DNA of 64,000 bases, taken from Patescibacteria group bacterium. GTDB taxonomy: Bacteria; Patescibacteriota; UBA1384; XYA2-FULL-43-10. Where the stretch lies: assembly GCA_041674405.1 (NCBI GenBank), contig JBAYVT010000004.1:10599-74598 (forward strand), in the 5' to 3' direction. The notes under the pieces were generated by a model. The model worked only from the letters and a program-made list of their open reading frames with translations, was not told where the DNA came from and made no database searches. The number at the start of each line of letters is the position of its first letter. Within the stretch, counting starts at the first letter, position 1. This document shows positions 26,378 to 62,108 of this stretch, one piece after another. The translations under genes were made by a program, and so were the position numbers.

Positions 26378-26416
26378 TAATTACCGCTTGGAGCTTGGCG
26401 GTAATTTGTGTTTTAA
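26378..26416 (+). terminator. Rho-independent terminator downstream of the Hsp20 gene
   Basis: Hairpin AATTACCGC-ttggagcttg-GCGGTAATT followed by TGTGTTTT. Confidence 0.7.
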
Positions 26417-26479: not shown

Positions 26480-27355
26480 ATGAAAATTCGCAAAGCCGTT
26501 ATTCCGGCAGCAGGTTACGGAACAAGATTTTTGCCGGCAACCAAATCTATCCCAAAAGAAATGCTGCCGATTGTCGACAAACCAACCATTCAGTATGTGA
26601 TCGAAGAGGCTGTTGAGTCAGGAATAGAAGATATCATTATCGTCACCGGTAGTACCAAGAGAGCAATCGAGGACCACTTCGACCACAGCCTGGAACTTGA
26701 AGGACAACTACAAAAAGCGGGAAAGATAGATCAATTAGAACAAATCCAAAAAATTGCCAGGATGGCGAATTTTATTTACGTGCGCCAGAAAGGGGCTTAC
26801 GGTAATGGTACGCCTGTTCTTAACGCAGAGCACATCATAGGAAATGAGCCTTTTGCAGTTCTTTGGGGCGATGAGTTTATTGCTGGTAATCCTCCGCGAT
26901 TGAAACAGTCGATAGAAGTATTTGACGAGTTTAAGAGGCCAGTTATTTCAGCTGTTCGAGTCGAAAAAAAGGAAGATCTGTCCCGTTATGGCATTGGCGA
27001 TGTAACGCTGGTAAGAGACAATATCTTCGAAATTAACGAGATAGTCGAAAAGCCTGATCCGGACAAAGCGCCGTCAAATTTAGCCACGCATGGAGCCTAC
27101 ATCCTAACTCCAGATATTTTTGATGCTTTAAAGAGTCAGAAACCTGGAAAAGGCGGTGAAATTTGGTTAGTAGATGGAATAAATGAACTTAAAAAGAAGG
27201 GTCCGATCTATGCCTGCGAAATTAAGGGCGGCAAATATTATGACTGCGGGAATATTACAGAATATCTAAAGACCAATGTCGAGCTTGCCTTGAAGCGCCC
27301 GGATCTCCAGGAGGAATTTGGGGAATTTATAAAAGAAACTGCCTCGAAATTGTAA
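26480..27355 (+). CDS. galU: UTP--glucose-1-phosphate uridylyltransferase
   Basis: MKIRKAVIPAAGYGTRFLPATKSIPKEMLPIVDKPTIQY is the canonical GalU N-terminus. Confidence 0.9.
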   Translation: MKIRKAVIPAAGYGTRFLPATKSIPKEMLPIVDKPTIQYVIEEAVESGIEDIIIVTGSTKRAIEDHFDHSLELEGQLQKAGKIDQLEQIQKIARMANFIYVRQKGAYGNGTPVLNAEHIIGNEPFAVLWGDEFIAGNPPRLKQSIEVFDEFKRPVISAVRVEKKEDLSRYGIGDVTLVRDNIFEINEIVEKPDPDKAPSNLATHGAYILTPDIFDALKSQKPGKGGEIWLVDGINELKKKGPIYACEIKGGKYYDCGNITEYLKTNVELALKRPDLQEEFGEFIKETASKL

Positions 27356-27436: not shown

Positions 27437-28816
27437 ATGGAAATTAAAGCTGGGTTTTTGAAAAAAATCAGTCTAGTTCTCTCGATTTTGCTTTTAGCCA
27501 TTCTTACATCAGGGTGCTCCATAAGATCTACGGGCACAACAGAATCAAAAGTTATAACCATATGGGGCTTTGAAGATGAGGATACTTGGAAGCCAACAAT
27601 AGACGAACTATCCCAAGGAAGCCTAAACGGATACGAAATAAACTACGTCAAAAAAACTCTCGACGCCAACTATGAGAATGATTCTTTGAATTCAATTATG
27701 TCTGGCCAAGGGCCAGATGTTTGGGCCATGCCAGCAGATTGGGTTTATCGACACAAAGACAAGCTGGCACCCATGCCAGATGATATGTTGAAAGACATTG
27801 ACCTGGATAATAAATTCGTCCCAGCCATCAAACAATCTCTTGATTTTGACGGGAAGCTTTATGGGCTTTCGCCGGTTGTTAACACCTTAATGCTGTATAT
27901 AAACAAATCAGTTACCGCCCAAGTTCTTTCCGAATTTAATCAATCCGATGCCGCGACTAATGCCGAACAAGCCGATAAGGTAAATACTCTCCTAAACTCA
28001 ACTCCGCAGACCTGGACCGAATTTGCCGACTTTGCAAATCTTGTTACCAAGAAAAATGGCGACCAAATTGTAAGAAGCGGTGTTGCCCTGGGTACAAGCC
28101 AGAACGTCACGATCTCCGAAGACCCTCTGTATGCGATGATGCTCCAAAATGGCACAGCCATGACATCTAACGACTTGCAAACCGCTACGTTTAACTTGCC
28201 TTCTTCGGGAGGATCAGACATACCGGGAAAAAGAGCTCTAGACTTCCTTGCAAGTTTTTCCAAACCGGGTTCTGCCAACTATTCCTGGAATGGAAGCATG
28301 CCGAAAGACATCGAGGCATTTGCAACCGGCAAAACTGCGATGGTATTTGCGTATGAATCTTTTGCGAATTACATGGATCAAAATTACCCAAATGTTGAAT
28401 ATTCACAGTCGGCCCTTCCTCAAATTGGCGGGGCAGATGAAAAGATTGTGGATTTTGCGCGATTTAACGCCTTGGTGGTACCAGGATTAACAAAGTTTCC
28501 ACAAGAGGCATGGGAAGTTGTTTCTGCTGTTTCTACCGAACATGCTACCGATTTTTCTAGTGCACTAAAAATTACGACTTCACAAAAAGACAATGCTATG
28601 ATCAAAGTCCTGAAAGACCGGGCGGGAAACTCTGACGTCGGCAGCTTTCAGGCCCAAACCGCTGTTACATGGAACAAGGGGAGGTACCCACTAAATATCG
28701 ATAGCATTTTTACAACAATGATCAACAATGTTTCGTCAAGCGGACAAGATACAAAAGCCGCTCTCGACACAGCAGCATCACAGGTTACGCAAATATTAAG
28801 AAAAACCACATGGTAA
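27437..28816 (+). CDS. Lipoprotein: extracellular solute-binding protein (ABC family 1, sugar type), orphan with no permease nearby
   Basis: Lipobox LTSGCS followed by a MalE-like TIWGFEDEDTWK...GKLYGLSPVVNTLMLYINKS pattern. Confidence 0.6.
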   Translation: MEIKAGFLKKISLVLSILLLAILTSGCSIRSTGTTESKVITIWGFEDEDTWKPTIDELSQGSLNGYEINYVKKTLDANYENDSLNSIMSGQGPDVWAMPADWVYRHKDKLAPMPDDMLKDIDLDNKFVPAIKQSLDFDGKLYGLSPVVNTLMLYINKSVTAQVLSEFNQSDAATNAEQADKVNTLLNSTPQTWTEFADFANLVTKKNGDQIVRSGVALGTSQNVTISEDPLYAMMLQNGTAMTSNDLQTATFNLPSSGGSDIPGKRALDFLASFSKPGSANYSWNGSMPKDIEAFATGKTAMVFAYESFANYMDQNYPNVEYSQSALPQIGGADEKIVDFARFNALVVPGLTKFPQEAWEVVSAVSTEHATDFSSALKITTSQKDNAMIKVLKDRAGNSDVGSFQAQTAVTWNKGRYPLNIDSIFTTMINNVSSSGQDTKAALDTAASQVTQILRKTTW

Positions 28817-29169
28817 AAATCAAAAAAACAAAAAAAACTGCTTTAATTTTCGCCGCCACCACATTGATCTCTGTGCTGCCCGGGTTTGCCAGCGCATTTA
28901 CCACCGGAGTTGCAATAAATGGCAAAACAACTTTCTCCAGTTATATGGACTGGATGAAATCAATTTTTGGCTTTGCCATGAAACTTGGAGCGGTTTTAAC
29001 TACCCTAATGATACTCTATGCCGCAATCAAATATATCACCTCGCAAGGCAATTCTAGTGCTACCAATGAAGCAAAGGACATAATTATCGGCAGCCTGTCC
29101 GGCTTCGCCATGCTGCTTCTCATTTATTTAATTCTTAATGTTTTGGGGCTAAAAAGCTTTGCGTTTTAG
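28810..29169 (+). CDS. VirB2/TrbC-like pilin-module protein 1 (signal peptide plus two hydrophobic helices)
   Basis: 119 aa with a signal-like N-terminus and two helices separated by a short polar loop (ITSQGNSSATNEAKD). The architecture is shared with 31374..31685, 31769..32086 and the C-terminus of 29179..31377. Confidence 0.5.
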   Translation: MVKIKKTKKTALIFAATTLISVLPGFASAFTTGVAINGKTTFSSYMDWMKSIFGFAMKLGAVLTTLMILYAAIKYITSQGNSSATNEAKDIIIGSLSGFAMLLLIYLILNVLGLKSFAF

Positions 29170-29178
29170 TTAGTTAAA

Positions 29179-31377
29179 ATGAAAAGTTATAAATTCATAA
29201 AATCCATTTCTCGATACCTCATAGTTTTTGCTGTTTTTGCAACCGCTACCTCCGCCATGGTTTTTGCTGTGCAAAATAACCAGGTGGGCGCGGACACAAC
29301 AACAGGTGTCAATTCCGCTGCCACTTCTGGAACAAGCAGCACGGGAGTCTCATCCGGAAAGGATTCCTCAGACGCTAAAAAAACTATTTCCGCTACCCCT
29401 AACTACAAAGTTGTTAAGTCATCTTCCGGTACCTCCGCCAAGATGGTCTTGGTTTCGGTCACAAATGAAGAAATTACTGGAGCTGATTATACAAACTCCA
29501 CCACCAGCTATGGCATTACAAAATCCAAAGACAGCGCTACATGCGAAAACATACTTTCCCTTGATGAATATTGTTACATTTTGACCTACAACCAAGAGTG
29601 GATCAAGCCTTCGGTCATTGATCCGATAAGCCCATCCTGGATATTTCTTGAAGAAATAAAGGGCCGCGCGACCACAGCAAGTGACTCATCTTCTCTCACC
29701 ATTATTAACAATGCCGAAGCCAGTTTTGCTTCGACTGCGCTCCAGAAATGGGACGGAGTAGATCTCTCGCAAATATCTCAGGGCGACGGGCAGATTATCA
29801 TTCGATCAGAGGCTTTTTTCGATGCACTTGACGCAGATAAATTGACCTCAACCGGGTCTTATGTCACCTATTCGGCACCACAAGACAAGAAAACCTCCAG
29901 TGGAACAACTTCGAAACAGCTCATTGTGAAACTGGCACCAGCGTATCCGGATGCAAAAGCTGAATCGCTATGGATGGACGCAATTGATTTCACTTTGGGA
30001 TCTGTAATTATCCCCTGGCAAGAAACCTTTCATGTGGATTTGTCGGACAAAAAATTAGCGCTTGAGAATCATCGAAAGGCATATGCAAACTATGCTGATG
30101 TGGCATCGTCAAAAACAGATGTGAACGGAACAGCCTTGAAAATTTCCGGCCCGCAAAAAATCATTATTGGCACCGATGGCTCGGCAAAAACAGACGGCGG
30201 TTTCAGTGTCACCATTGATCCTACCAAATTTACCAAACCCGAGAGAGGATACAAAACCCAGGTGTATATTAAGCCAACTGTCAAAAATGGGGATGCTGTT
30301 TTCACTTATTTACAATCTACCGATCCGGCCGCAACGTCATTTCCCTTTACTTGGTCTGCGATTGCCACAAATCCTTATGCCACCTCTATTCTCGCCGATG
30401 GTTCAGTAAAAACATATGACGATAGTGAGATCAAAGCTAATGGAATAATGTCTTACGAAAAAAATTATCCGCAGTCATACACCGTCACCGCCATCACATA
30501 CAATCAAGATGATTCGGAAAAAGAGAGAGTCGTTATGACTTTCGATACGATCGGCGATTCTTCATTTACCGAAGCACCGAAGGTTGGTTCGGGCAATATC
30601 ACAAATGGGCATATCTCGATTTCTGTCCCACAAAACACATTCACTAAAGCTGACAGGCAGCCAGTTCATTACACGATTCAGCTCGCAGATACAAACAATC
30701 CTAAAAAAATGAAAAAGATTGTTGTCTGGACATGCGGAGGAACAGCATCTGCAACAATAGCAGGGGATTCAAGCAACTGCGTCGGCACAGGAAATATCGA
30801 GCAAACAATCGCTGCATTTATAATGAGCGACATTCGCCCAGCCGACAAGCCAACCTGGAAAGAACTTGCATATGATGAAAACGGAGAGGCTACTCTTCAG
30901 GGCGATTGGGATATTTCGGGTACAAATGTCGGCACATTTTCCTTGATGGCCAAGGCACATAGTGCCAATTCGGATGATTCGGGCGGTATGGCTTCATATG
31001 TTCCCGGCAGCAAAGTTGCCGTCACCGTGAGCATAACCGATTCGAAACTCAATGATGGAGGTGGTTTAGATACTAAGTTTACCGACCTCCTCAAGCTCGG
31101 GAAAAAAGCATCATCAAATGCCAGAGGGTCTTCAATTACAGACTTAACAGGGGCAGCCACCAGGGTTGTAAATATAATTTTGTCTGCCCTCAGTGCGATT
31201 TGCGTGTTGGCAATAATAATCGGCGGAATACAATACATCTCATCAGGGGGAGATCCGGCCAAAGCTGAAAAGGGCAAAAAAACTGTTATCTATGCTGTTT
31301 ATGGAATCGTTTTAGCAATATTAGGATTTTTTATTGAATATGTGGTTATTGACTTAATTCACCAAATACTAAAATGA
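29179..31377 (+). CDS. Large Ser/Thr-rich surface protein with a C-terminal VirB2/TrbC-like pilin module (candidate pilus-tip or adhesin fusion)
   Basis: N-terminal signal anchor and a roughly 640-aa ectodomain. The last roughly 80 aa (VVNIILSALSAICVLAIIIGGIQYISSGGDPAKAEKGKKTVIYAVYGIVLAILGFF) align in pattern with the neighbouring small pilins. Confidence 0.55.
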   Translation: MKSYKFIKSISRYLIVFAVFATATSAMVFAVQNNQVGADTTTGVNSAATSGTSSTGVSSGKDSSDAKKTISATPNYKVVKSSSGTSAKMVLVSVTNEEITGADYTNSTTSYGITKSKDSATCENILSLDEYCYILTYNQEWIKPSVIDPISPSWIFLEEIKGRATTASDSSSLTIINNAEASFASTALQKWDGVDLSQISQGDGQIIIRSEAFFDALDADKLTSTGSYVTYSAPQDKKTSSGTTSKQLIVKLAPAYPDAKAESLWMDAIDFTLGSVIIPWQETFHVDLSDKKLALENHRKAYANYADVASSKTDVNGTALKISGPQKIIIGTDGSAKTDGGFSVTIDPTKFTKPERGYKTQVYIKPTVKNGDAVFTYLQSTDPAATSFPFTWSAIATNPYATSILADGSVKTYDDSEIKANGIMSYEKNYPQSYTVTAITYNQDDSEKERVVMTFDTIGDSSFTEAPKVGSGNITNGHISISVPQNTFTKADRQPVHYTIQLADTNNPKKMKKIVVWTCGGTASATIAGDSSNCVGTGNIEQTIAAFIMSDIRPADKPTWKELAYDENGEATLQGDWDISGTNVGTFSLMAKAHSANSDDSGGMASYVPGSKVAVTVSITDSKLNDGGGLDTKFTDLLKLGKKASSNARGSSITDLTGAATRVVNIILSALSAICVLAIIIGGIQYISSGGDPAKAEKGKKTVIYAVYGIVLAILGFFIEYVVIDLIHQILK

Positions 31378-31685
31378 TGCATAAAATTATTTCTATCGCT
31401 ATGGCTGCGGATGACCTTAAGCTGCCGGAGAAATCTGGTGGCACAGAGGCTGATCTTGGCACTGTTCTTGGCTTTCTTGAAAAAATTATTTCTATTGCCA
31501 TGGATATCGCCATAATCCTCGGTGTTATTATGATTTTTGTTTCCGCCTTTATATATGCAAGCTCTTTCGGCGAAGAATCCAAGGCAGAAACTGCCAAAAA
31601 GACTCTTTTGTGGGCAGTTATCGGAACAGGCGTAGCATTCTTGGCAAAGATTATTGTTGACAACCTTGATCTGCTTTTGGGTTAG
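31374..31685 (+). CDS. VirB2/TrbC-like pilin-module protein 2
   Basis: 103 aa with the two-helix module IILGVIMIFVSAFIYASSFGEESKAETAKKTLLWAVIGTGVAFLA. Its start overlaps the stop of the upstream gene. Confidence 0.5.
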   Translation: MMHKIISIAMAADDLKLPEKSGGTEADLGTVLGFLEKIISIAMDIAIILGVIMIFVSAFIYASSFGEESKAETAKKTLLWAVIGTGVAFLAKIIVDNLDLLLG

Positions 31686-31768
31686 CGCATCAATAATGTT
31701 ATTTGACAAGCAAAAAATATGTGCTTAAAATTGTTCTTAGTGGACTTAAATAATAAGACGGAGGGCGA

Positions 31769-32086
31769 ATGAATTTAGTAGAAAAGGCGTACGCGGTTAG
31801 CAAAAACCAGTGGACTGGTTTGCTAAACCCAACAGCCACCACTTCGGGAAACTGGCAAGATATTGTTAATAACGTTATTAACATTGTCTTGATGGTAGCT
31901 GGTGCATTAGCGGTTATTTATCTAATCTATTCTGGCATTCTCTACATTACTGCGGCAGGTAATCCGGATTCAGCCAAAAAGGGTCAGCAAGGCATTATCA
32001 ATGCTGTGATCGGTATTGTGATCATCGTTGCCGCATTCTTCATCGTCAGAGCAGCAATGGGTCTTGCTGGGCAAGCTACAAAATAA
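31769..32086 (+). CDS. VirB2/TrbC-like pilin-module protein 3
   Basis: 105 aa with VINIVLMVAGALAVIYLIYSGILYITAAGNPDSAKKGQQGIINAVIGIVIIVAAFF. It has its own TTGACA...TTAAAAT promoter and a GGAGGG Shine-Dalgarno. Confidence 0.5.
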   Translation: MNLVEKAYAVSKNQWTGLLNPTATTSGNWQDIVNNVINIVLMVAGALAVIYLIYSGILYITAAGNPDSAKKGQQGIINAVIGIVIIVAAFFIVRAAMGLAGQATK

Positions 32087-32096
32087 GATCAATTGG

Positions 32097-33761
32097 TTAA
32101 TCTTTCGTTACGCGCCAGACTTCTTCTGCAGTCGTAACGCCCGATAAAACTTTTGAAAGTCCGTCCTGTTCCATGGTAATCATGCCTGAAGACAGGGCGG
32201 CTTTTGTAAATTCCGAGAGTCCGGCTTTTTCGAATAATAGTTTATCGATTGACTCGTTTGGAACAAGCACTTCAATAATTACTTGCCGGCCAGAAAACCC
32301 GACATTTCTACATTTTCCACATCCTTTTCCGCGTTTTAGCTTGGGAGCGGCACTTGATAACAAATTTTGGGATGCAGGATCCAATAATTTTTGAATAGGC
32401 AACAAAGAGTCTTGAATTTCTTTCCAGACTTCAGGGCTGGGAGTATATTCCTCGGCACAAGCCGGGCATATTCTGCGCACGAGCCGCTGAGCCATAACCA
32501 AGTTTATTGATCCTGACAAGAGGAATGGTTTTACGCCAATATCAAGCAATCGGACAAAAACTCCGGGTGCAGAGTTGGCGTGAATAGTAGAGAGCAGCAA
32601 ATGGCCCGTCATGGCAGCCTGTATCGCAATTTCCGCCGTTTCGGTGTCTCTTACCTCCCCTACCATTAAAATGTCAGGATCTTGGCGCAGAGAGGCTCTA
32701 AGACCCAAGGCGAAGGTATATCCCTCCTCTTTTTCAACCTGGCTCTGCTCCACACCGGGAATGTGATACTCGACAGGATCCTCAAGAGTGATTATTTTTA
32801 CATTTGACTTATTGAGCTCATGTAAAATTGCATAAAGCGTAGAGGATTTACCTGAACCGGTCGGTCCAGAAGTTAGAATCATCCCATGCGGCTTCGAAAT
32901 TGCTGCCTCGATTACAGATAGCGCATCGGGCCTTATGCCCAAGTTCTTTAGGCTCAAGATTGACCCAGTTTGGCGGAGCAATCGGATTACAACGCTCTCT
33001 CCGTCAGCTGAAGGTAAGGTAGACACTCTTAAATCGATTGGCTCCTCTCCAAACTTGAAAGAAAACCTGCCGTCCTGCGGTTCGATGGCATTATCCATTT
33101 TTAGTTTCGATAAAAATTTTATTCTGGATAAAAGTGACTTATACTGGGACATCGGAAGAGACACGACGTTTTGCAAAACCCCGTCAATTCTGTATCGAAT
33201 AATGAATTCTTTTTCTGTCGGCTCAAGGTGGATATCTGATGCATTTGTTTTTGCTGCTCCGGTCATAATTACCTCGAGGAGATGGGTAGTTGATACGCTT
33301 CTGGCGACACTGGCAGCTGATTCTAAATCTTTAATCTCTTCCGTAAAGTTTTGCCCGGATTCTTTCGTTTCTTCGGCTTTCTTTTTTTCCTCTTTTTCTT
33401 TGTTTTCATAAGCCAGAATGCCGTAAAACAGGCTTGCTTTCGAAATTAATGATTTCACAAATTTCAATTTCGATGTTCTCTCAAGCTCGGCTAGATAAGA
33501 TGCCATGGCATCATCCGAAGGGTTGGCTGTGCCAATTTTTACCGTAGACCCGATCTTTAAGTAAGGAATAATTTGAAACCTCAAGGCGATTTCCTTTGAA
33601 ATCAAATTTAAAATCTCCGGCGCAATCGGATAATTTGAGAGATTTATATATGGCAAATTCAGCTTTTTTGCCAATTCTTGGGTATGTCTCTCCTCCTGCT
33701 CGCGGTTGAGGTAAAAAATTGTCTTATTAAGATCAGGCAAGTTCCCTCCGGTCAAAAACAA
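32097..33761 (-). CDS. pilB: Type IV pilus / type II secretion family assembly ATPase (PilB/GspE)
   Basis: GspE N-terminal domain, Walker A LTSGPTGSGKSS, Asp/His boxes (GEVRDTETAEIAIQAAMTGHLLLSTIHANSA) and a C-terminal tetracysteine CPAC...CGKC. Confidence 0.85.
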   Translation of the reverse strand: MFLTGGNLPDLNKTIFYLNREQEERHTQELAKKLNLPYINLSNYPIAPEILNLISKEIALRFQIIPYLKIGSTVKIGTANPSDDAMASYLAELERTSKLKFVKSLISKASLFYGILAYENKEKEEKKKAEETKESGQNFTEEIKDLESAASVARSVSTTHLLEVIMTGAAKTNASDIHLEPTEKEFIIRYRIDGVLQNVVSLPMSQYKSLLSRIKFLSKLKMDNAIEPQDGRFSFKFGEEPIDLRVSTLPSADGESVVIRLLRQTGSILSLKNLGIRPDALSVIEAAISKPHGMILTSGPTGSGKSSTLYAILHELNKSNVKIITLEDPVEYHIPGVEQSQVEKEEGYTFALGLRASLRQDPDILMVGEVRDTETAEIAIQAAMTGHLLLSTIHANSAPGVFVRLLDIGVKPFLLSGSINLVMAQRLVRRICPACAEEYTPSPEVWKEIQDSLLPIQKLLDPASQNLLSSAAPKLKRGKGCGKCRNVGFSGRQVIIEVLVPNESIDKLLFEKAGLSEFTKAALSSGMITMEQDGLSKVLSGVTTAEEVWRVTKD

Positions 33762-46377: not shown

Positions 46378-49300
46378 TTAAAATCCGACATGTGTATACG
46401 CGGTAGTCTGTGGATTTGCCCACATGCCAGCCTTGGTGCCGTTACACAAGCCGTTTGTTTGCCCGCCGCCAGTGACATTTTTACATATGGTATCTGATGT
46501 AAGTGCTGACCAAGCATTTACATCTTCCCAACGGCCGGTCATGACCTGGGTTGGGACGAGCTTTTGATCATCTGTACTTGATGGCATGTCGTATAAGTTT
46601 TGGATGAATTTATTGGCCTTGTATTGTGCAGCCTCAATTATCTTTCTCTCTCTGGTTTTACTGTCTATACCATTCCATACCCCGAGATTTCCGTTGTCCA
46701 CTATATCGGGTGATGGTGGTGATTCGATGCTAGGATAATAACCATCAGCTGTACACAAGTATTCAACTTTGTAAACACCAAAGAGGTTATTGTAAAGGAT
46801 AATTGCCACATCAATTGCTGCTTGTATCCAGTTGCCATACAGAAAGCTGATAGTGGCATCCAGAAGAAGCGATAAGGTGCCAGGAGCAAGTCCGAGCTGC
46901 TCGTCCCATTTTGCCAATGTGTCGCCCAGAACAAGCCTTGCCGCATAAGAGATTGCCGCAGCCTTGGCATTTGCAAGATTGGCACCAGAAGCCCCGCTTC
47001 CGCCGGACGCAGCAAATGCCTGCTCTGCCTGTTTAAAGTTCTGGTACAAATTATAAAGATTTTGGCTTGTGCCTGGCGGCAGACCAAATGTCTTGTCAAC
47101 AAATCCGCCAACAAAGTTTAGGGCAAACGATGGGCCCCCATAAATGTCTGCTAGAGATTGAAGCTTATTTCCAGCTATTGATAGTGCCCCTTCTAAGCTT
47201 CCAGTCTGAAGAAATCCAAGAATACCACCGAATGTGCCTTGGCCGAAATCGACCCCAAAAATCGAGGCTGCCTTACCTGTAATGTAATTATCTATTGTGT
47301 TAACGAGAGTTCCGTCGGCAGTGGCTGATCCCAAAAGGCCATTCAAAGCGCTCTTAAAGTCAAAGCTGTTCGGATCAGAAATAAAATTTTGTAGTGTTCC
47401 CAAGAATCCGCCCGGAAGAAAATCTATTCCGAGGTCATTCCGGATTAAGCCCTCGGCATATTCAAGTAGGGTAGTTGTCCGCGTCCAATCATTCCCCTGA
47501 AACATGCTGCGGGCAAAATCGGCAGGAATATTCGGATCCAGCCTGTGCAAGGCTAAATCAATTGATTTATACTCCACTCCCTGGCTCCAAATATTTGTAG
47601 CAAAGTCGATTGCTGCTTGCCCAGCGTTTAAGACATCAAGCGCTCGAGTATTGCCAATTCGAACATTTAGAAGGCTGTCAATTGCCGCCCCTGTATCAAT
47701 CCCAGCAGTAATGCGCAATCCATTGTCAACTTGAAGATTTAGAATCGGCGCACTTGAAGTATCCGATGCACCCGGGAAATTAAGGCCAATGTTAATAATC
47801 CCGTTTGGAGGCCCAAGGTTAGATGATGTAGTAGAATCGGACAATATCCCGGTTGAAACGTTGAAGGTGGCGTTACCGGCGGCGATCGTCCAGTTGTAAC
47901 TAGAATTAGTCAGCTGGTTCCATCTTTGTTGCTCTGCTGCCAGGCGAACGGCAATTTCCTGTGTTAAATCTCCATATACCAATCGCGTTAGATCGCTAAA
48001 ATTAAACTTGAATGAATTTAGGGCATTTATTGCGTTGTCGTATGTTTCAAATATTCCCAAATTGAAGGGCAATCCGTCTTTGCCGGAATACATTTGGGGG
48101 ATATTCATGACTGCACCTAGGAGCTGAATCGGCCTAAAATCCCCATAGAGAATTTGCTGGAAAGTTGAAGAGTCAAACCCGTCCATGTTTAGGAGATTTT
48201 TGAGAGAATATTCCAGGTTGCCGGCAATATCTTTGATCGTGAAATTAACTTGCAAATCTTTAAAAGCGTCCCCGACAAGTGTGTTTAACTGTCCCCCGAT
48301 CGTGGACTTGAGGCAAGATTCCGTATCTCCACTGCCGCCAAATATCGAGAGCCCGCATCTTATGTCCGGATTGCCCAAGATCAATGTCTTGAATACTGAA
48401 GTCAATCCTAAACTGCTGTCAAATGCCTCGGCACCAAAGGATATTAATCTGTTAAAAGTTGTCTGAGGGTCTTGCAGAATTGTGGCCATGGTGCCTTCCG
48501 GCAAACCGGCTTTTTTATCCAGATTCCAAGAGAAAATATTGTTTAATGTACCATAAAGATCACCCATGTTATCGCCGGGATCTTTGATCCAGGTGATGAG
48601 ATTGTTTATGTCGCCATCTGTTATTTGCCTGTCGCTGCCGTCTTGTAGCCCGAGTCCTTTTATCAAACCCGAAATCAAATTGTTCTGAGTTGCGGCATCA
48701 GTAACCTGGCGTACGTATTGGTTTATCGGGAAAATCTCACCCAGGCTTCCCGCGGTTGGCGAGGCAAGAAGCTTGACTGTTGTGCCATCCGGCAGCCCGA
48801 GATTGCGATCCAGAAAAGATAATCTGCCAACGAAGTTGTTCCACGAAGGTTCGTTCTGGCTAAATAAGGTGGCAATTGTATCCGAATTAAATCCACCGGT
48901 GCTTCCTTTTGAGACCAGGGAATCAATTGTCTTTTGTAATGCATCATTCACTCCGGTCCAGTTAGTGCCTAAGGCCTGGTAATAAGTTACAACGGAGTTT
49001 AGTTTTTGATAAAAGCTGTTTCCTGCATTCACATTAAAGAAATTTTCACCCATAGACTTTAATTCTGCATTTACAACACTGATCTCTTCTTGGCTTACCG
49101 GAATTTGGAACGCTTCGGCAAATTTAACAACCCCGACATTCTTTGCAACACCCAAAATATTTCCGCTTTTTAGCGACCCAGCCGGTAATCCGAGCAGTGA
49201 CTCTGCTTTATTTGACCCAACACTGCTACCGGTGAACAAAGAAGCCAAGTCAAGGTTGCCTGTGCCAATAGAGTTACCGATAAGATTAGTTGATATTTGA

Positions 49301-52300
49301 GTGGCTGCGCACTTTCTTGCGCTTGCATTATCATTGTTTAGGAGCCCCGAAGCGGTACCTTTTTGCAGATTGAGGCTAGAATCTAGAATTGAGCTGCCGA
49401 TTTTTGCGAATACGCTCTTTGAATTGCCGTTAAATATATTGAAGATATCGTCAGCGGTCAATCTTCCGGATCCTATTTGTGTTCCGATAGATTGGTTTAC
49501 AGAAGATGCGGCAAGCTTGTCGACTATGTTGTAGCCAGAAACCTTTAGGTAGTCGAGCGGGACTTGCCCACCGGAGCTATTTTTATTCTGCCTTGAAAAT
49601 ACCGCTTCGCTTTCTTCAGTCGAGATATTTAGCCCGAAGTCCAAAATCTTTTCAAATTGGATAAGATTAGCATCGCTAAATGGCTTGGACGATGTATTAT
49701 CAGAAACAAATGTGTCTAGGGCAGCTTTTATTTTATCAGCACTTCCATAATCCTTTAGGAAGTCTTTTGCCGCGGCAATTCCTTCGGCAGAAAATTGTGG
49801 CGGGAATGACCTAAAATAATTTTCGAGGTAAGAAGGAACTCCGCTGCCTGTTTGTGAAGCTCCTTTAGATATGTCCAAAGATAACAAATAAACTGCGTTT
49901 GCAATTTCGTCAGTATAATTTATTTTTTTATCATCGTTTGCGCTCTTGTATTCACTAGCAGCAGAATATGTGCTAAATATATGTTCGCCGGCTTTGTCGA
50001 AATACACGTAGCTATTGTCTGGTATGGTCGTGCCTGCGATATCGACATTTTGTATGGGCTGGCAGGGATTGTCAGGCGTTGCTGCTGCCATTAAGTAATT
50101 GTTGTGGTCGACGAAGTAAATTTGGTTAACCCCAGGATTGTCATTTCCTCCCTTGTGTGTCATAAACGCCTTAATCGCTGCTTCGGAAACATGCATTTTT
50201 GTTGCCAAAAGCCTGATAGTATCGCTGTCAGCTTCCGATTGGTCATATCCACCGATTTGTTGTCCGGTGATAAATTTCTCGGTCGTCCCGGCCGGCAGCT
50301 TGCTTTTCACGTCATTCGCAATCGCCTTGGAGCGAGCCGAAGACCACGCGCTGAAGCTGTTGTTCATAAGGTCATCAAGATCAAATCCCTTTAGTCCCAT
50401 GCCCGATGCAAGAATATTGTTTGCTTTGCTCCGGCTTATTTTCAATTTGTTTACCATGCCGTCACGAAGGTCTGCCAAAGATTTTGGTGACGACAGATCA
50501 GATCCTGTTAAAATTGAGCTTCCGGCAACTCCAGCTTGCTCCTCAAGAGCTGCTGAACCGATGGCACGGAAAAAAATGTCTTTGAAACTTTGGCTGTTCT
50601 TTGCTTGGTCATTGTTTTTTGCCAGAGCCAGTGCGTCCGAAGCATATTTTAGGGCCTTTGAAGAGATCCCCAAGCTGCCGCTTAGTTTAGCTGAGGCAGC
50701 GCCAGATACTAAATCTTGCAAAGTAGTTTTTCCGGACAGGAACGAAACCAGGTCTCCCAATCCAAGCTTGGAGCCACCCAGATCGATGGAGGAAAACTTA
50801 ATATCACTCAAGTGCAAATCTTCAATCTTAAAATCCGCCTGCTCGTTTCCAGTGGTGATCTCATATGCAGATTTTGTGATATCTTGTACATTCTGCATTA
50901 CGCCATTGAGCTGGTGCAGATAATCGGAAAATGTTCCGTCATTGCTTGAAAGGCCTTCGGAGAGATCTGTAGATCCGGAAAATACCGGGGAGCTTGCTTC
51001 GTTAATGATACTGCCAATCGCGATTGCGGCTGTTGTTGTGTCTCCGCCTCCCGGGTTTGCATCAGCCTTTTCGGCAGCGGTCGCGAACACAGACAAAGCC
51101 TGTTTTAGAGCGTCATCCTTTGCTTTTATTGTGCTATTTAATTTGTCTGATACTGCGCTTGAAGCAGACGTATAACTTTGTATTCGTTGATTTAGAGTGT
51201 TCAGTGTGGACTTAATGCCGTTGATTCGGTCGGTATAATATGCCTGATCGCGAACATTTTTATTTTCTAATACATTTGAATTGTTTGCTTCTTGTGTTTT
51301 TTTATCGTCATAGCCCGAAGTCTCAAGTGCTTGCCTTAAGTTTTTTTGCCCTATTTTTTTGAAAGTACCGGCCGGGTCTGATCCTATGCCAAATAAATTT
51401 GCGAAATCGATCTGGTTTATGCCAAGCCTTGAGGCATAGGTTTGCACCTGGATTTGTGCGGTCTGCAAAGACGGCTCCTCTGCTGTATTGGTGGGAACAT
51501 CTGTTGTAAATGTTGCATTTGGATTTTTAAACCAGTTGCTCAAATTTGTTCTTGATTGCTCGCCGTTTTCAAGAGCGCTCGATAGAGCAAAGATGCCAGC
51601 GTTCAATAACTGGTCCTGAGAAATTGTCCCCCCAAGAAAACTGGCCAGAGTGCCGGCAGGCAGATTAAAAATACTATCATTTTGGCCATATGAACCATTA
51701 AAGTTTTTGTATACATCCGCTCTTTTTGTGATGTAGCTTTCTGCAATTTGCTGTAGATAATTTGGAAGAGAAAGAACCCCGGCCTTAAGAGACGCTGTTG
51801 TTCCCGATCCCAAGCCGAAATCGGTATCGAGGGCACTTGGAAATGCGATTATGGTTGAAAGCTGGTTTTTTCCAATTGTAGAAAGCACATCATTAAGTCC
51901 GGATTTATTGAATGATCCCGAGGCAAGGCCAAATTGATTTTCAATTAATCTTGCTCCGATTTGGCTATATAGGCTTGGCTGATTCATTGACTGAACGTCG
52001 AAAACTCCCTCTGGCAGTGAAAGTTCTTGAATTATTCTCTCTCTTCCGATTTGGGCGAGAATATCGGCCCTGTTCTCGCCGGTGAGTGAGCCGTAGGGGA
52101 GGCCAAGGGCTTGTTCTATCCCGGCCCTACCCAGAGATTCTTCGAGGCCATCAATATTTAAGACCGAACCATCCATAAATGGGCCAGAAGGCAACGATAA
52201 GGCTTCTGCAATTATCGAGCCGCCGATTTGTTGTAACGTACCGGAAAGGTCAAGGTTCCAAAAATCTGAATCAGTTCCAGAGTTGATGGTATTGGCAAGA

Positions 52301-57105: not shown

Positions 57106-58965
57106 TTATTCTCCCAATAATTGTTTCGGATCCGTGGTGATGATTTGATCTTCGGCATATGATGCAACAATTTTTATGGCGACATGGTTTAAACCGGCGA
57201 AAAACAATCCTTCGCCTACATCCGATTGCAATAGAATATATTTTTCCCCCTCCGTAAGGCCGAAAGTCTCTGCGATTACATCGATTGACGAAGTGGATTG
57301 CTTCATGAGCATCTGCATAGAAGAGTTGGCAACCACTGCTTTTCCATATCTTGAACCTAAGAAATCTTCCACATCTTGGCTGATCACGGTAACTCCAAGG
57401 TAGTATTTGCGCGCCCGTTTTACTAAGCCGTGTAAGAATTTGGCAGAATCTTCGTATTGCATCATCCACCAAGCTTCATCAATAACCATCAAGCGGCGGC
57501 GCATATCCATGCGGATTTTGGTCCAGATATAATTTAATATCAGATACATCGCGATCGGCCGAAGTTGCTCTTCGAGATCGCGGACCGAAAACACCACAAA
57601 ACCAGGCTTGAGTTCAAAGTTGGTAGTCTGGTTGAACATGCCAGCAAACGTGCCTTCGGTATATTTAGACAACCGCGCCCTCAAAGACTCGCTGCTGCCC
57701 ATATTGGACAGAACATTGTAGAAATCTTGCATCACTGGCGGCTCATTTTTTTGGCTCTCTGGGTCGGTAGTAATGTCTTTGATCGCATATGTCTCATACA
57801 AACCCTTATCTACCAGAGCGTCTTCTTCTGGGGAAAGTCCACCAACCATAAGATTGATGAGTCCGTGCAACGAAGAGATGGTTGACCTTAGAACATCATC
57901 TCCCGATTCTTCTCCTGATTCGGAATGGGGAAGATCAAAAGGGTTAATGCGATGCTCGGCATTTAAAGAAATGCTTAGATAACTGCCCCCGACGGCCTCA
58001 CAGAGCGACTTATATTCATTTTCTGGGTCAACTACGACCACATCTGTTCCCGACATCAAATAGCGCAAAATTTCAAGCTTAACTGCGTAAGATTTACCAG
58101 AGCCGGACTTTGCAAAAACCACTGAATTGGCATTTTCCAGATCAAATCTGTCAAAAATTATCAAAGAATTATTGTGGCGATTGATCCCGTACAATATTCC
58201 GTCATCCTGGGTAAGCTCAGTAGATGTAAACGGGAAGGTTGATGAGAGTGATCCAGTATCAAGGTTGCGAAGAACACCGATTTCATCAGTCATCAGAGGA
58301 AGGGTGGTGTTGAAACCCTGTTCCATCTGCAGGAGTGTTTGTTTGGAGTAAACTAGCATGCCGCCGAGAGTAGATTCAAGCTGTTCTGTCAGGGTGTTGA
58401 GATCGTCTGGGGTTTTTCCATAAATTGTGAAATATAATCCGAACTGGAACAACCTCATCTCACCTCGTTGTAACACGTCACGCAAGGACTCAACATCTCC
58501 TAGTGCTGTTTCCATTTCCGGATCTCTTGGGGCACCCTTCTCTTGCTCGATCATCATCGTTGACTCAAGTTTTCCGACTTGTTTTTTAAGGTCATACATG
58601 ACATCTTTTGACTCGAGCGGGTGAATATACATCCCAATATCCATCGTAAGATCATAATCAATGATTGGGGAAAGCCAATTTGTATCTAGGTAACGCGGAT
58701 AGGTAAATACGAATAAAGTTTTGATAAAATACTCACCCAGTTGCAGATAATTCGGTGTCACAACAAAAGCTGCCGGAGCGATGAGGTCACGCACCGAAGA
58801 TAATCCCTGCGATACGGCATCGATTGTTTGGTCGGTTGCCTTATCGGCCCAGAATTTAGGATCCGAAGCTTGTTTTTCTCGCTTTGCAATGTTTTTTTGG
58901 GCAAGAGCTCTTGGGTCCTGGGTTGCTATTTGTTTTTGATCGTTATCAGCCATTTTACCAGCCAA
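57106..58965 (-). CDS. VirB4/TraE/PrgJ-family type IV secretion ATPase (body and ATPase domain)
   Basis: VVFAKSGSGKSYAV Walker A, LMVIDEAWWMM Walker B, and the upstream VTPNYLQLGEYFIKTLFVFTYPRYLDTNWLSPII region typical of Gram-positive VirB4 homologs. Confidence 0.8.
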   Translation of the reverse strand: MAGKMADNDQKQIATQDPRALAQKNIAKREKQASDPKFWADKATDQTIDAVSQGLSSVRDLIAPAAFVVTPNYLQLGEYFIKTLFVFTYPRYLDTNWLSPIIDYDLTMDIGMYIHPLESKDVMYDLKKQVGKLESTMMIEQEKGAPRDPEMETALGDVESLRDVLQRGEMRLFQFGLYFTIYGKTPDDLNTLTEQLESTLGGMLVYSKQTLLQMEQGFNTTLPLMTDEIGVLRNLDTGSLSSTFPFTSTELTQDDGILYGINRHNNSLIIFDRFDLENANSVVFAKSGSGKSYAVKLEILRYLMSGTDVVVVDPENEYKSLCEAVGGSYLSISLNAEHRINPFDLPHSESGEESGDDVLRSTISSLHGLINLMVGGLSPEEDALVDKGLYETYAIKDITTDPESQKNEPPVMQDFYNVLSNMGSSESLRARLSKYTEGTFAGMFNQTTNFELKPGFVVFSVRDLEEQLRPIAMYLILNYIWTKIRMDMRRRLMVIDEAWWMMQYEDSAKFLHGLVKRARKYYLGVTVISQDVEDFLGSRYGKAVVANSSMQMLMKQSTSSIDVIAETFGLTEGEKYILLQSDVGEGLFFAGLNHVAIKIVASYAEDQIITTDPKQLLGE

Positions 58966-60064
58966 AATCTTTATTTAATGCAGGATCGCTATCTGGATCA
59001 TTTGTGGCTTTCGGGTTCACTGGTGGATTGTTAGGTTGGGGAGGTGTTTGCCTGTTCTGTGGCGGTTCATTAATACTTGTGCCGGATTCTTGTGATTGCG
59101 CTTTAGTTTGGGTTTCCGCAGTCTGGCTTTGTGGTGTGGCCGGCTTCTCTTGCGCCTCTGCTGCCGGTGGAGCCGGTGCGGTGCTCGGTGCGTTGGAAGA
59201 ATTTGTGTTTGCGGATACCGTATTGTTTGAAGTCGTCGGCGCTTTCATGTCTCTTTCTGCGTTTTTTTCTATCGCCTGTTGTCTTTCTTCCTGTTCCTTT
59301 TTCTGCTGGGCATTAACTATTTCTGTGTTATCGATTGTAGATTCATCTTCAATCTGGCTGGGCTCGAGAGCCTCGTCTTCTTTGTCTTTTGTGTGTGTAA
59401 CAAAAGCTGAGGCGAAAGTATTTGCTTCTTCTGCAAGCCTTTCCTTGCCGGCAACCTCGGGATTGTACGTGCTGTAAAGAAGCTCAATCACTTCTTGTGT
59501 ATTTAGTTGCTTGCAATGTAATCCGATCGAGCCGAGGCCCTGGGCGACGGTAGTAGCGCGCTGCTTTAATTCGGTTGTGTATCGGGCATAGTCTTCTTCG
59601 GAAACCCTGAGCTGGGCAGTTTCATTATTCTTTTTGAAAAGCTTATCCAATATTCCGCCGTTATTTGTGACCAATGGCTGATAACCGACGGTTACGTAAA
59701 AAGTTTTTTTCATAATATTGGCTAGGTTGATAAGCTGAGAGACGAAGTCGACATAATCTTCTGTTTGCAACTTCAAAAGCTCGTTTTTCTGTTTTTCCGC
59801 CAATTTCTTAATCTTGTTTAAATATGGGGTCAAATCCAGTTTTTTTGATGAAATCAAAATCTCAATCGGAAAATGAAGCGAATTTAAGAAGCTTTGGTAA
59901 TTAAAAATAATGCTATTTTGCTCTTGCTCGCTCTTTAAGTCGAAATTTATAGCAGCAACAGACATGACAATGCGGTATTGCCCGTTTCTCAGAATAACTA
60001 TCCCGTCGCGAATGCCTGCGACCAAAACGTTTTCTTGGGTTGTGGGAGCTTTGACGGTAGCCAT
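58955..60064 (-). CDS. T4SS-associated protein resembling the N-terminal domain of VirB4 (about 230 aa) followed by a Pro/Gln/Thr-rich disordered tail; possibly the 5' part of a split or frameshifted virB4
   Basis: GIRDGIVILRNGQYRIVMSVAAINFDLKSEQEQNSIIFNYQSFLNSLHFPIEILISSKKLDLTPYL fits the VirB4 N-terminal pattern. It overlaps the ATPase ORF by 11 nt in another frame. Confidence 0.45.
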   Translation of the reverse strand: MATVKAPTTQENVLVAGIRDGIVILRNGQYRIVMSVAAINFDLKSEQEQNSIIFNYQSFLNSLHFPIEILISSKKLDLTPYLNKIKKLAEKQKNELLKLQTEDYVDFVSQLINLANIMKKTFYVTVGYQPLVTNNGGILDKLFKKNNETAQLRVSEEDYARYTTELKQRATTVAQGLGSIGLHCKQLNTQEVIELLYSTYNPEVAGKERLAEEANTFASAFVTHTKDKEDEALEPSQIEDESTIDNTEIVNAQQKKEQEERQQAIEKNAERDMKAPTTSNNTVSANTNSSNAPSTAPAPPAAEAQEKPATPQSQTAETQTKAQSQESGTSINEPPQNRQTPPQPNNPPVNPKATNDPDSDPALNKDFGW

Positions 60065-60066
60065 GC

Positions 60067-60516
60067 TTACCTCGTTGCAATATTATTATTTGAAGAATCC
60101 AGCGATTTTGCCATTCTTTCCATCTGCTCGCGGGTTATGTGTTTGGATTCGACATGCGTAGCCGATTCCTTTTCTGGATTTTTGTAAACTTCCACGTCAA
60201 ACCCTGATTCTTCTCTTTGCCAAACGCGCATCCTTGGTTTGCCCATAAAAACAAACAAAGAAGCAAGAAAATGCAAAAAAGGCCGTTCGTTAATTTTAAG
60301 AAATATCAGAGCCAATGTAAAAAGTGCAACCATTATAGCTAAAAACAAGCCAAACATGTTTGGTATCGACATATAGCAGACATACGCCAATCCGCCGCCA
60401 ACGACAGCATAGACAAACTGAAGCATTGTCAGCGGTCCCAAAATGCGATCCTGCATATCTATATTTTGCGGAACCTTGTAACGCAATTTCCCTCGCTCCC
60501 TCCTTTTGGAGTTCAA
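60067..60516 (-). CDS. PrgI-family (VirB3-like) small membrane protein
   Basis: YKVPQNIDMQDRILGPLTMLQFVYAVVGGGLAYVCY followed by a second TM helix, the defining PrgI pattern. It sits directly upstream of virB4, as in Gram-positive conjugation loci. Confidence 0.65.
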   Translation of the reverse strand: MNSKRRERGKLRYKVPQNIDMQDRILGPLTMLQFVYAVVGGGLAYVCYMSIPNMFGLFLAIMVALFTLALIFLKINERPFLHFLASLFVFMGKPRMRVWQREESGFDVEVYKNPEKESATHVESKHITREQMERMAKSLDSSNNNIATR

Positions 60517-60586: not shown

Positions 60587-62077
60587 TTATTCTATCGGTG
60601 AAAGAATGTTCGTTTCATTGGCAAGAGCGCCGAGAAATGCACCGCCAACTGCTAGCAGGCCCGTGCTAGATGCCTGGGATTCCGGAGTTGGATTTTGTTT
60701 GTCGAAACCGCCCCAGCCATCATAATATCCCATTGAATCCAAATCCAGCCCATCAAAATCTTCGCCTAAATGGCCTTTTTCTGATTGGACGATTCTCTTT
60801 ATGGTGTTATAAAAAACTAAGTACGATTCGATTGCGCGGGAGATCCCGGGATGTTCCGTCCTTAACTTTTCTATTGAAAAATTTCCGCCGGCGATACCTT
60901 CGGCAATTTCGGCATATTTTGTACTAATTTCTCCTGATTGATCTGTATCCGATTCACTAATGCCGAGTTCTGAACTGGAGAAACGGCTGAAACTGCCGGG
61001 ATCGAGCTTTTTAAGGCATACCTCTAAAAAGCTCAAGAAGCTTCCATCGCTCTGGAGATAAATGGCAGTGTAATCGGTTACAATTTCTTCTGCTGCCATG
61101 ATTTCGCGCGACTTTGTGAACTTTTCTTCCGACCCCCATTTTGCTTTTTCTGTCGGTGAGAGTGAATTATATTCCGATTTTTCCAAGCTCTTAATCACGT
61201 TTCTGACGTGTTGCGGCTGAAAATCAATATAATCTTTTGCATTTCGAATGATTTCTTTTGCCTCTCTAAGCGAAATCTCGATCGGAGAATTGGCATTTTC
61301 TTCATCTGCTTCGGATTCTTTGTGTTTTGCGACAGCGACTATTCCGTGGGATATCTCGTGGTCGATCATTTGAACAAAATCCAAGCTCAGGATTTTTCCT
61401 TCGGAAGTTGCAAAATTATCTTTCAGGGCAGATCTCGAGAGTTTGATAACCCCTCCCCCAAAAGACATAATCCCTTCATAACCAGCCGAGGCTCGAGATT
61501 CGTCCTCTAAACTATCGGATATTTCAACATTTTGAACGAGTGTACAGACATCATTAGCGGTAAGGTGCCCATTGATTATCGGGAGAGATAGGGCATAAAG
61601 GATCTCTGTTTTTTTACTCAATACTCCCGAATACTCAGGGTTTTTTGATAACTCGGAAATAGCGGCATCTGAATCTTGAAACAGCGCTTCTGAACGTGCG
61701 ATAAAAATCGCCGTCTCAGTGAGAGCGCTACTAGATGGCGCAGACTCTCCGTATCGCTCTTTTAATATCGCATAAATTTTTTCAATCAGGTAAGAATTCA
61801 GATTTTCGTCCGATATATGATTGAGGAGAATTGCAAAAACTTCTCTCTTGTCCAGGGAGTGGCTTTTATTTTCGTGAGTCATTCTTTTCGTTGCTTCGAG
61901 AATAGAGGGACGATTCTGCTCGGTAATTTCAACTTCACCGGAATGATCTATCTCCGGTTCTGCCCCTTCCTGGCCTTCGTTGCCCCCTTCTGGTTGTTCT
62001 CTTGTTTGATCCGCTTCCGAAATTTCTGGCGATTGTCCAGGTGGGCCAGCAGAAGGGTTTGGGGCGTCAGTGGCCAT
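60587..62077 (-). CDS. Hypothetical protein with an HExxH motif (candidate zinc metallopeptidase), an acidic low-complexity N-terminus and a hydrophobic C-terminal segment
   Basis: MIDHEISHGIV contains HEISH; no signal peptide; the C-terminus TGLLAVGGAFLGALA is hydrophobic. Confidence 0.45.
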   Translation of the reverse strand: MATDAPNPSAGPPGQSPEISEADQTREQPEGGNEGQEGAEPEIDHSGEVEITEQNRPSILEATKRMTHENKSHSLDKREVFAILLNHISDENLNSYLIEKIYAILKERYGESAPSSSALTETAIFIARSEALFQDSDAAISELSKNPEYSGVLSKKTEILYALSLPIINGHLTANDVCTLVQNVEISDSLEDESRASAGYEGIMSFGGGVIKLSRSALKDNFATSEGKILSLDFVQMIDHEISHGIVAVAKHKESEADEENANSPIEISLREAKEIIRNAKDYIDFQPQHVRNVIKSLEKSEYNSLSPTEKAKWGSEEKFTKSREIMAAEEIVTDYTAIYLQSDGSFLSFLEVCLKKLDPGSFSRFSSSELGISESDTDQSGEISTKYAEIAEGIAGGNFSIEKLRTEHPGISRAIESYLVFYNTIKRIVQSEKGHLGEDFDGLDLDSMGYYDGWGGFDKQNPTPESQASSTGLLAVGGAFLGALANETNILSPIE

Positions 62078-62108
62078 GACAGCCTTTCTTTTTTATCGTC
62101 AAATTATC

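Follow-up and report, generated by a model that had tools for sequence, protein, structure and literature searches.

A PF18895 pilin gene array near a patescibacterial replication origin includes a 732-residue protein with a large predicted ectodomain

Introduction

Why should a small pilin-like module sit at the end of a protein of 732 residues? The question is raised by a stretch of 64,000 nucleotides from a Patescibacteria group bacterium (assembly GCA_041674405.1, contig JBAYVT010000004.1, positions 10,599 to 74,598), hereafter the window, in which four consecutive genes on the forward strand encode the proteins p119, p732, p103 and p105 (Table 1). An earlier reading of the letters alone (the sequence-only reading) had proposed that these four proteins share a VirB2/TrbC-like module, that p732 is a fusion of this module with a Ser/Thr-rich surface part, and that such proteins are not a standard described class. 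All four open reading frames (ORFs) are present, and the public entry for this contig (ENA ERZ27247358) carries identical calls for them.

Pilin gene arrays are known from Patescibacteria, which are ultra-small bacteria. In 383 assemblies Quinonero-Coronel et al. (2025; PMC12102498) counted 441 arrays, each made up of 2-11 VirB2-like pilin genes whose paralogues are about 25% identical. In Southlakia epibionticum, the one cultured species tested, its type IV secretion system (T4SS) and the pilin array (SEML1_0014-0019, followed by Hsp20 and ComFC) are essential (Wang et al., 2023; PMC10633639). For the locus described here we computed family membership, protein architecture, synteny, the fusion and fission of hairpins, the turnover pattern of the ectodomains and the T4SS genes in the window. 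We propose, with a probability of roughly 0.55, that the four genes form a VirB2-like PF18895 array belonging to an origin-proximal T4SS of the monoderm type (MPF-FATA-like) in a Berkelbacteria-related organism, and that p732 is a displayed minor subunit co-assembling with the short pilins.

Results

Each of the four proteins carries one C-terminal module that consists of a hydrophobic helix, a polar lysine-rich loop and a second hydrophobic helix. All of them pass the gathering cut-off of the family PF18895 (T4SS_pilin; 26.6 bits), with 30.9 bits for p119, 40.3 for p732, 37.6 for p103 and 46.0 for p105. Pairwise identity among the four is 16-40%, and over 32 family members the loop follows the motif Y-x-[ST]-[SA]-x-G-[DNE]-P-x-K..K. 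As a chance control we built a hidden Markov model (HMM) from 28 relatives, none of them from the window, and ran it on the 789 window ORFs of at least 40 residues. This foreign model matched exactly p119, p732, p103 and p105 (40-101 bits). The next best ORF reached 6.3 bits, and the best score among 1000 composition-preserving shuffles of the four modules was 9.5 bits. The similarity of the modules therefore exceeds shared hydrophobicity, and the claim that the four genes share one helix-loop-helix module is confirmed. No further pilin module was found elsewhere in the window, the T4SS cluster included.

The description of this module as VirB2/TrbC-like is supported as well. Besides the PF18895 matches, the four proteins reach E-values of 1.5e-5 (best) to 7e-3 against the TrbC/VirB2 family PF04956 below its cut-off, and judged by these scores they are related to this family but are not members of it. 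Over 32 modules the loop contains on average 2.9 lysine or arginine residues and has a net charge of +1.25, while the N-terminal flank has a net charge of -1.0. AlphaFold2 predicted the expected hairpin both in p732 (helices 653-687 and 693-731, pLDDT 56-72) and in p105 (helices 29-60 and 66-104, mean pLDDT 71.5). Fold searches with the hairpin matched generic hairpins and did not tell the module apart from any other hairpin. A sequence-profile search of the PDB with the module alignment returned no solved pilin, only MacB and a designed coiled coil with non-significant E-values. The locus falls within the published definition of an array, namely 2-11 tandem pilin genes of low identity in a genome with a Patescibacteria-type VirB4 (PMC12102498). 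Since such arrays have already been published for Patescibacteria, the array as such is almost certainly a PF18895 array of a known kind.

The long member p732 combines the hairpin with a predicted Sec-type signal peptide and an ectodomain of about 610 residues. The leaders of all long relatives end in (G/S/A)-A-D. The ectodomain contains 12% Ser and 11% Thr, with an S/T-rich, poorly conserved N-terminal stretch at residues 40-130 and a folded part predicted to be beta-rich, the beta strands of the model being of low confidence. Two cysteine pairs are present (122/132 and 519/534); C519 and C534 are invariant, the 122/132 pair is conserved in the consensus, and Trp and Tyr positions are invariant across the conserved region. 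AlphaFold2 run on p732 without an alignment gave a mean pLDDT of 36, so that its fold for the ectodomain is not usable. The ectodomain (residues 39-650) has no sequence relative in Pfam, NCBIfam or the PDB, and its 20 homologues likewise have no family match; the best PDB profile match, a PKD-type domain, is not significant (E = 0.17). NCBI already names the protein "pilin" (MFA7244254.1). The 90% identity cluster that contains it is represented by a fragment of 38 residues.

Since the loop of the hairpin is positively charged, the positive-inside rule would place it in the cytoplasm and the large domain outside. We consider it very probable that the ectodomain is located outside the cell, with the hairpin as its anchor, and the cysteine pairs and the leader of p732 are consistent with this predicted topology.

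Searched exhaustively with HMMER, 1.84 billion representatives yielded 6494 matches. Of these, P0001-P0014 (666-915 residues) align with most of p732, with identities of 24-52%; PF18895 is matched by every one of the 21 proteins in the p732 family alignment. Using the neighboring PilB gene as a handle, we recovered from at least 13 species syntenic loci arranged as ComF-Hsp20-GalU-SBP-[p119-like]-[long]-[p103-like]-[p105-like], with PilB in convergent orientation (SBP, solute-binding protein). The long member at this slot measures 394-1170 residues across at least 13 related species. On this comparative evidence the fusion is a real conserved gene, and the Ser/Thr-rich fusion protein noticed in the sequence-only reading is borne out. 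The 732-residue ORF is intact on two contigs, one of 158 kb. That the ORF is a chimera of the assembly, or arose when a frameshift fused a decayed gene, is refuted by its conservation; nothing was found in favor of this view.

Comparison of the long proteins revealed a pronounced turnover of their ectodomains. By BLAST the p732 family comprises 37 proteins, all with one or more C-terminal modules, the proteins of loci L012 and L015 being mosaic members. Four singleton ectodomain types (loci L002, L008, L013 and L047) are not linked to this family by BLAST or profile comparison beyond marginal fragments. The slot thus holds at least five ectodomain types that are mutually unrelated by BLAST, and none of the ectodomains at the slot has a Pfam match. 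The hairpin, on the other hand, shows the highest conservation within the long proteins and keeps the invariant Y/G/G positions of the family; it is constrained like an ordinary pilin and is not a degenerate anchor. In this pattern the ectodomain behaves like a cassette that can be exchanged while signal peptide and hairpin stay constant. With an ectodomain that is rapidly replaced between species, a fixed slot in the array and a fully conserved pilin hairpin, p732 is a concrete candidate for a determinant of host contact.

The hairpins themselves are joined and separated among relatives. Seven species encode a long protein with two C-terminal hairpins, the second of which is consistently closest to p103. 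At split loci, as here, the long and the p103-like genes are tightly coupled by an ATGA overlap or a TAAATG junction, and in three relatives both genes lie in the same frame with one stop codon between them. By sequence comparison p103 corresponds to a second hairpin that is detached here and remains joined to the long protein in the sister species. We also considered a joining of p732 and p103 by stop-codon read-through or frameshifting and rejected it, since the stop codons are mixed (TAA, TGA and TAG) and the arrangements are those of ordinary translational coupling. In tandem hairpins the linkers, predicted to face outward, are 40-60 residues long. Fusion and fission of this kind, with p732 and p103 separate here, one protein in the sister species and proteins of 2-7 modules elsewhere, constrain models of subunit packing.

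Among the 150 best library matches, 103 (within P0016-P0150, for example P0024 and P0022) consist of nothing but 2-7 tandem PF18895-like hairpins without any other domain. We found no description of such "polypilins" in the literature searched. A scan of metagenome contigs for close relatives of p732 gave one weak module match only.

The three short pilins differ in their leaders and in their conservation. Leader sites of the small-x-small type (Sec-type) are predicted in p119 and p732, and none is predicted in p103 and p105, where only 7 and 4 codons, respectively, lie upstream in the open frame. Orthologues of p119 are 38-60% identical. In sister species, the p119-like genes of loci L010, L017 and L019 (217-256 residues) are lengthened at the N-terminus by a variable stretch that reaches about 150 residues. 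Ectodomain size is therefore graded over the array and not unique to the long member. The protein p105 is the most conserved of the four (41-74% identity among orthologues) and the best match to the family. A GGAGG sequence is found upstream of most p105 orthologues, and five orthologues have a TTGACA-type -35 element in front of them. Because of this conservation, its own putative promoter and the strong ribosome-binding site, p105 is our candidate for the abundant, major subunit, and p119, p732 and p103 would be minor subunits. The leaderless short pilins (window 31374-31420 and 31769-31810; loci L002, L004, L006, L008, L013, L017 and L019) share the N-terminal motif M-x-(W)-L-[IV]-E-K-A-[YH]-A, which ends in a small-x-small site and has no hydrophobic core. 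Possibly this motif acts as a non-canonical leader or forms a surface helix.

Discussion

How could these proteins work together? From their layout we infer a topology, a leader cleavage site, a co-assembly and a role in host recognition. Each module would insert into the membrane as a two-helix hairpin, with the lysine-rich loop directed to the cytoplasm and both ends directed outward (N-out/C-out). The Sec signal peptide of p732, probably cleaved after A38, would export the disulfide-containing ectodomain of about 610 residues, and the C-terminal hairpin would keep this ectodomain in the membrane. The T4SS would then extract the hairpins or organize them into a surface structure, in which the hairpin of p732 co-assembles with the short pilins and the variable ectodomain is shown to the host cell. 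In this sense p732 hints at an assembly of the array proteins into a surface structure able to display cargo. The odds of a function of p732 in host contact are about even, and an adhesin or pilus-tip role is plausible. Co-assembly into a filament, rather than into a purely membrane-resident complex, falls slightly short of even odds. In favor of the array as part of a T4SS, the window with its VirB4, TrsD-like and PrgI genes and with dnaA/dnaN matches the published layout of patescibacterial T4SS genes and arrays (PMC12102498).

Several points weigh against this proposal. No organism has been seen to form a pilus from PF18895 proteins (review PMC12857230). Against PF04956, p119, p732, p103 and p105 score 10.2, 17.0, 24.0 and 25.5 bits, below the cut-off of 27.9, and against NF045849 (the Mbov_0395 family, mycoplasma pilin-like) they score 14.9, 22.8, 25.4 and 34.6 bits, below the cut-off of 40. 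Signal peptides are absent from p103 and p105, unlike in VirB2/TraA propilins. The T4SS core lies 25 kb away, while a PilB-type ATPase adjoins the array. Neither an adhesin nor a lectin domain could be detected in the ectodomain of p732, in its 20 homologues or in 10 other long pilins. Finally, judged by the structures of the F- and T-pilus, an N-terminal domain of 600 residues may be sterically hard to accommodate in a VirB2-type lattice.

The most serious alternative, although in our view an unlikely one, is that the hairpin is only a membrane anchor or a subunit of a ring, channel or stalk, without an extended pilus, comparable to the rings of ATPase c-subunits or to the presumed oligomers of VirB2 within the T4SS machine; p732 would then be a surface protein tethered at the T4SS. 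The many proteins of 2-7 tandem hairpins among the best matches and the seven sister proteins with two hairpins in cis recall duplicated c-ring subunits, and the structure-based annotation in the supplement of Wang et al. lists an ATP synthase c-subunit among the matches of one array pilin. The generic fold matches of the hairpin and the fact that no pilus has been seen so far (PMC12857230) point in the same direction. This view has to reckon with a family that is a sequence relative of TrbC/VirB2, with E-values down to 1.5e-5, and with a diversification of array paralogues that is typical of surface-exposed filaments (PMC12102498). The outward linkers of 40-60 residues would also fit neighboring subunits of a helical filament, and the tandem-hairpin proteins as such fit both a filament and a membrane oligomer.

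Much less probable is that the array is unrelated to a T4SS and forms, together with the orphan SBP-like lipoprotein and galU, a separate envelope or uptake device of which the hairpins would be the membrane part. The SBP gene overlaps the start of p119, at least 12 species have SBP and galU immediately upstream of their array, no ABC permease is adjacent, and 25 kb separate the array from the T4SS core. The hairpins, however, have no similarity to transporter families, PF18895/VirB2-like genes are found near virB4 in 1135 published assemblies (PMC12102498), and the S. epibionticum array lies inside the T4SS cluster (PMC10633639). That the four proteins are type IV pilus subunits is very improbable: the PilB/GspE gene (412 bits) is indeed only 10 bp away and the convergent neighbor in all syntenic loci, but it is not co-transcribed with the array, all four proteins lack a class III signal peptide as well as a lone hydrophobic helix at the N-terminus, and we reject a partnership with PilB because the G↓F-x-x-x-E-type prepilin motif is absent from all four (the window has two irrelevant matches only) and the hydrophobic hairpin is C-terminal. 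The PilB/GspE-type ATPase is a conserved neighbor and probably not a functional partner of the array.

The four genes share much with the patescibacterial arrays known so far. Both consist of tandem, divergent PF18895 paralogues (16-40% identity here, a mean of 25% in the published arrays), are origin-proximal, belong with an MPF-FATA-like T4SS (VirB4, TrsD, PrgI) and have Hsp20 and ComF neighbors. The published arrays are, however, described as arrays of small pilins, with SEML1_0017 and SEML1_0018 at about 127 residues, whereas one member here carries an ectodomain of about 610 residues, to which sister species of this locus add a second hairpin. The present array also differs in lying 25 kb from virB4, beside PilB, and in its probable co-transcription with an SBP-like lipoprotein.

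Like VirB2, TrbC and TraA pilins, the four proteins have two hydrophobic helices and a basic loop, a predicted N-out/C-out topology and a weak but consistent sequence similarity, and p119 and p732 may resemble them further in their predicted cleavable leaders. Unlike these pilins, all four stay below the PF04956 cut-off, two are leaderless and the host is a monoderm. We are not aware of any VirB2-type pilin onto which a large domain is grafted. In Gram-negative T4SSs, adhesion comes from a separate tip protein (VirB5) or from separate adhesins.

The design of p732 has a counterpart in modular type IV pilins such as PilB of Streptococcus sanguinis, which carries a vWA module (Raynaud et al., 2021; PMC8179133). 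In both cases a polymerization module with a bulky domain would stand among ordinary pilins, as a minor subunit with binding specificity. Superfamily and machine are unrelated, and the order is reversed: modular type IV pilins have the module N-terminal and the graft C-terminal, whereas in p732 the graft is N-terminal and the hairpin C-terminal. The likeness is one of analogy and not of membership. As cited in PMC12102498, Bartonella Trw and the Anaplasma T4SS have several diversified copies of VirB2/VirB5, which have been read as an adaptation to different host surfaces. They resemble the present case in the tandem amplification and divergence of surface-exposed pilus subunits. These paralogues, however, stay small and vary by paralogue sequence, not by grafted, exchangeable ectodomains.

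In the full-text literature searched, papers that name PF18895/T4SS_pilin, or that pair "VirB2-like" with Patescibacteria, mention small pilins only and no ectodomain-bearing or tandem-fused members. The view of the sequence-only reading that such proteins are not a standard described class therefore holds in part: arrays have been published and p732 is already named a pilin, but pilin modules with large ectodomains are not described in the literature searched. A wider idea, which we offer tentatively and regard as doubtful, is that VirB2-like hairpins serve Patescibacteria as a construction kit for a surface filament of the T4SS type in a monoderm cell, and that the modular pilins are host-range determinants of these obligate episymbionts. 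As part of this idea, 2-7 hairpins might be concatenated and exchangeable ectodomains of 250-1100 residues might be swapped between species at one conserved slot close to the origin. If true, these would be the first "modular pilins" in the conjugative-pilin superfamily.

Genomic Context of the Array

The features of the locus and its surroundings are collected in Table 1. With dnaA, dnaN and recF at 40.7-44.8 kb, the window represents the chromosome around the replication origin. The closest matches of the PilB and GalU proteins come from metagenome-assembled genomes labeled Berkelbacteria or Patescibacteria. Hsp20 and ComF genes flank the array, which by a count of the ORF list lies roughly 18-20 genes from virB4 and hence at the edge of the "near" definition of PMC12102498 (+/-20 genes).

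Table 1. Coordinates of the pilin array, its parts and neighboring features within the window (↓, predicted cleavage site).
Feature	Coordinates	Strand	Evidence and remarks
Terminator-like hairpin	26379-26406		Precedes the galU-like gene
galU-like NTP transferase	26480..27355	+	PF00483 in contig record; first gene past the terminator-like hairpin; upstream of array in all syntenic loci
Solute-binding-protein-like lipoprotein, orphan	27437..28816	+	PF01547 SBP_bac_1, 40.9 bits
p119, short pilin	28810..29169	+	Predicted Sec-type signal peptide (..PGFASA↓F) and one hairpin; PF18895 30.9 bits
p732, modular pilin, whole gene including stop codon	29179..31377	+
p732 signal peptide, residues 1-38	29179..29292	+	Predicted to end ..VGA↓D; A38 and D39 invariant in 21 homologues
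p732 ectodomain, residues 39-650 (~610 residues)	29293..31128	+	Composition, conservation
p732 C-terminal pilin hairpin, residues 651-732	31129..31374	+	Helices 653-687 and 693-731; loop SSGGDPAKAEKGKK; PF18895 40.3 bits over residues 657-715
p103, leaderless short pilin	31374..31685	+	PF18895 37.6 bits; start overlaps p732 stop (ATGA)
Sigma-70-like site	31703..31731	+	TTGACA-17-TAAAAT, 11/12, best in region; followed by GGAGG ribosome-binding site upstream of p105
p105, leaderless short pilin	31769..32086	+	PF18895 46.0 bits; TrbC 25.5 bits
PilB/GspE-type ATPase	32097..33761	-	PF00437 412 bits; convergent with array; neighbor conserved in synteny
T4SS core genes	57106..60516	-	25 kb from array, beyond the dnaA-dnaN-recF region
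VirB4-like ATPase	57106-58965	-	NF045971 358.5 bits (cut-off 325); also PF19044, PF12846
TrsD-like protein	58955-60064	-	E = 2e-8, below its cut-off
PrgI/VirB3-like protein	60067-60516	-	PF12666 38.9 bits (cut-off 27)

The genes galU, SBP, p119, p732 and p103 are probably transcribed as one unit, with p105 expressed from a separate promoter. The SBP-like lipoprotein has a signal peptide with the lipobox LTSGC, and the stop codon of its gene overlaps the start of p119 by 7 nt. No ABC permease gene is adjacent to it, and at least 12 species retain SBP and galU upstream of their array. The position of galU beside a gene for an S/T-rich surface protein hints at glycosylation.

The T4SS cluster also contains cell-wall peptidases and a secreted protein of 2429 residues (46378-53667, minus strand). 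Its gene closes the cluster, following those of C39-like and M15 peptidases. The protein begins with a signal or transmembrane segment, matches no Pfam family and could act as an effector or as a surface protein of giant size. No VirB6-like polytopic protein was found within the window. Upstream of the PrgI, TrsD and VirB4 genes (60587-63992, minus strand), two large soluble proteins of 496 and 627 residues are encoded that have no match to any family. Directly after a tRNA-Ser(cga) gene, the segment 33867-36000 has a GC content of 0.51 compared to about 0.42. With its methyltransferase and GNAT-like genes, this segment may be a small island that was acquired.

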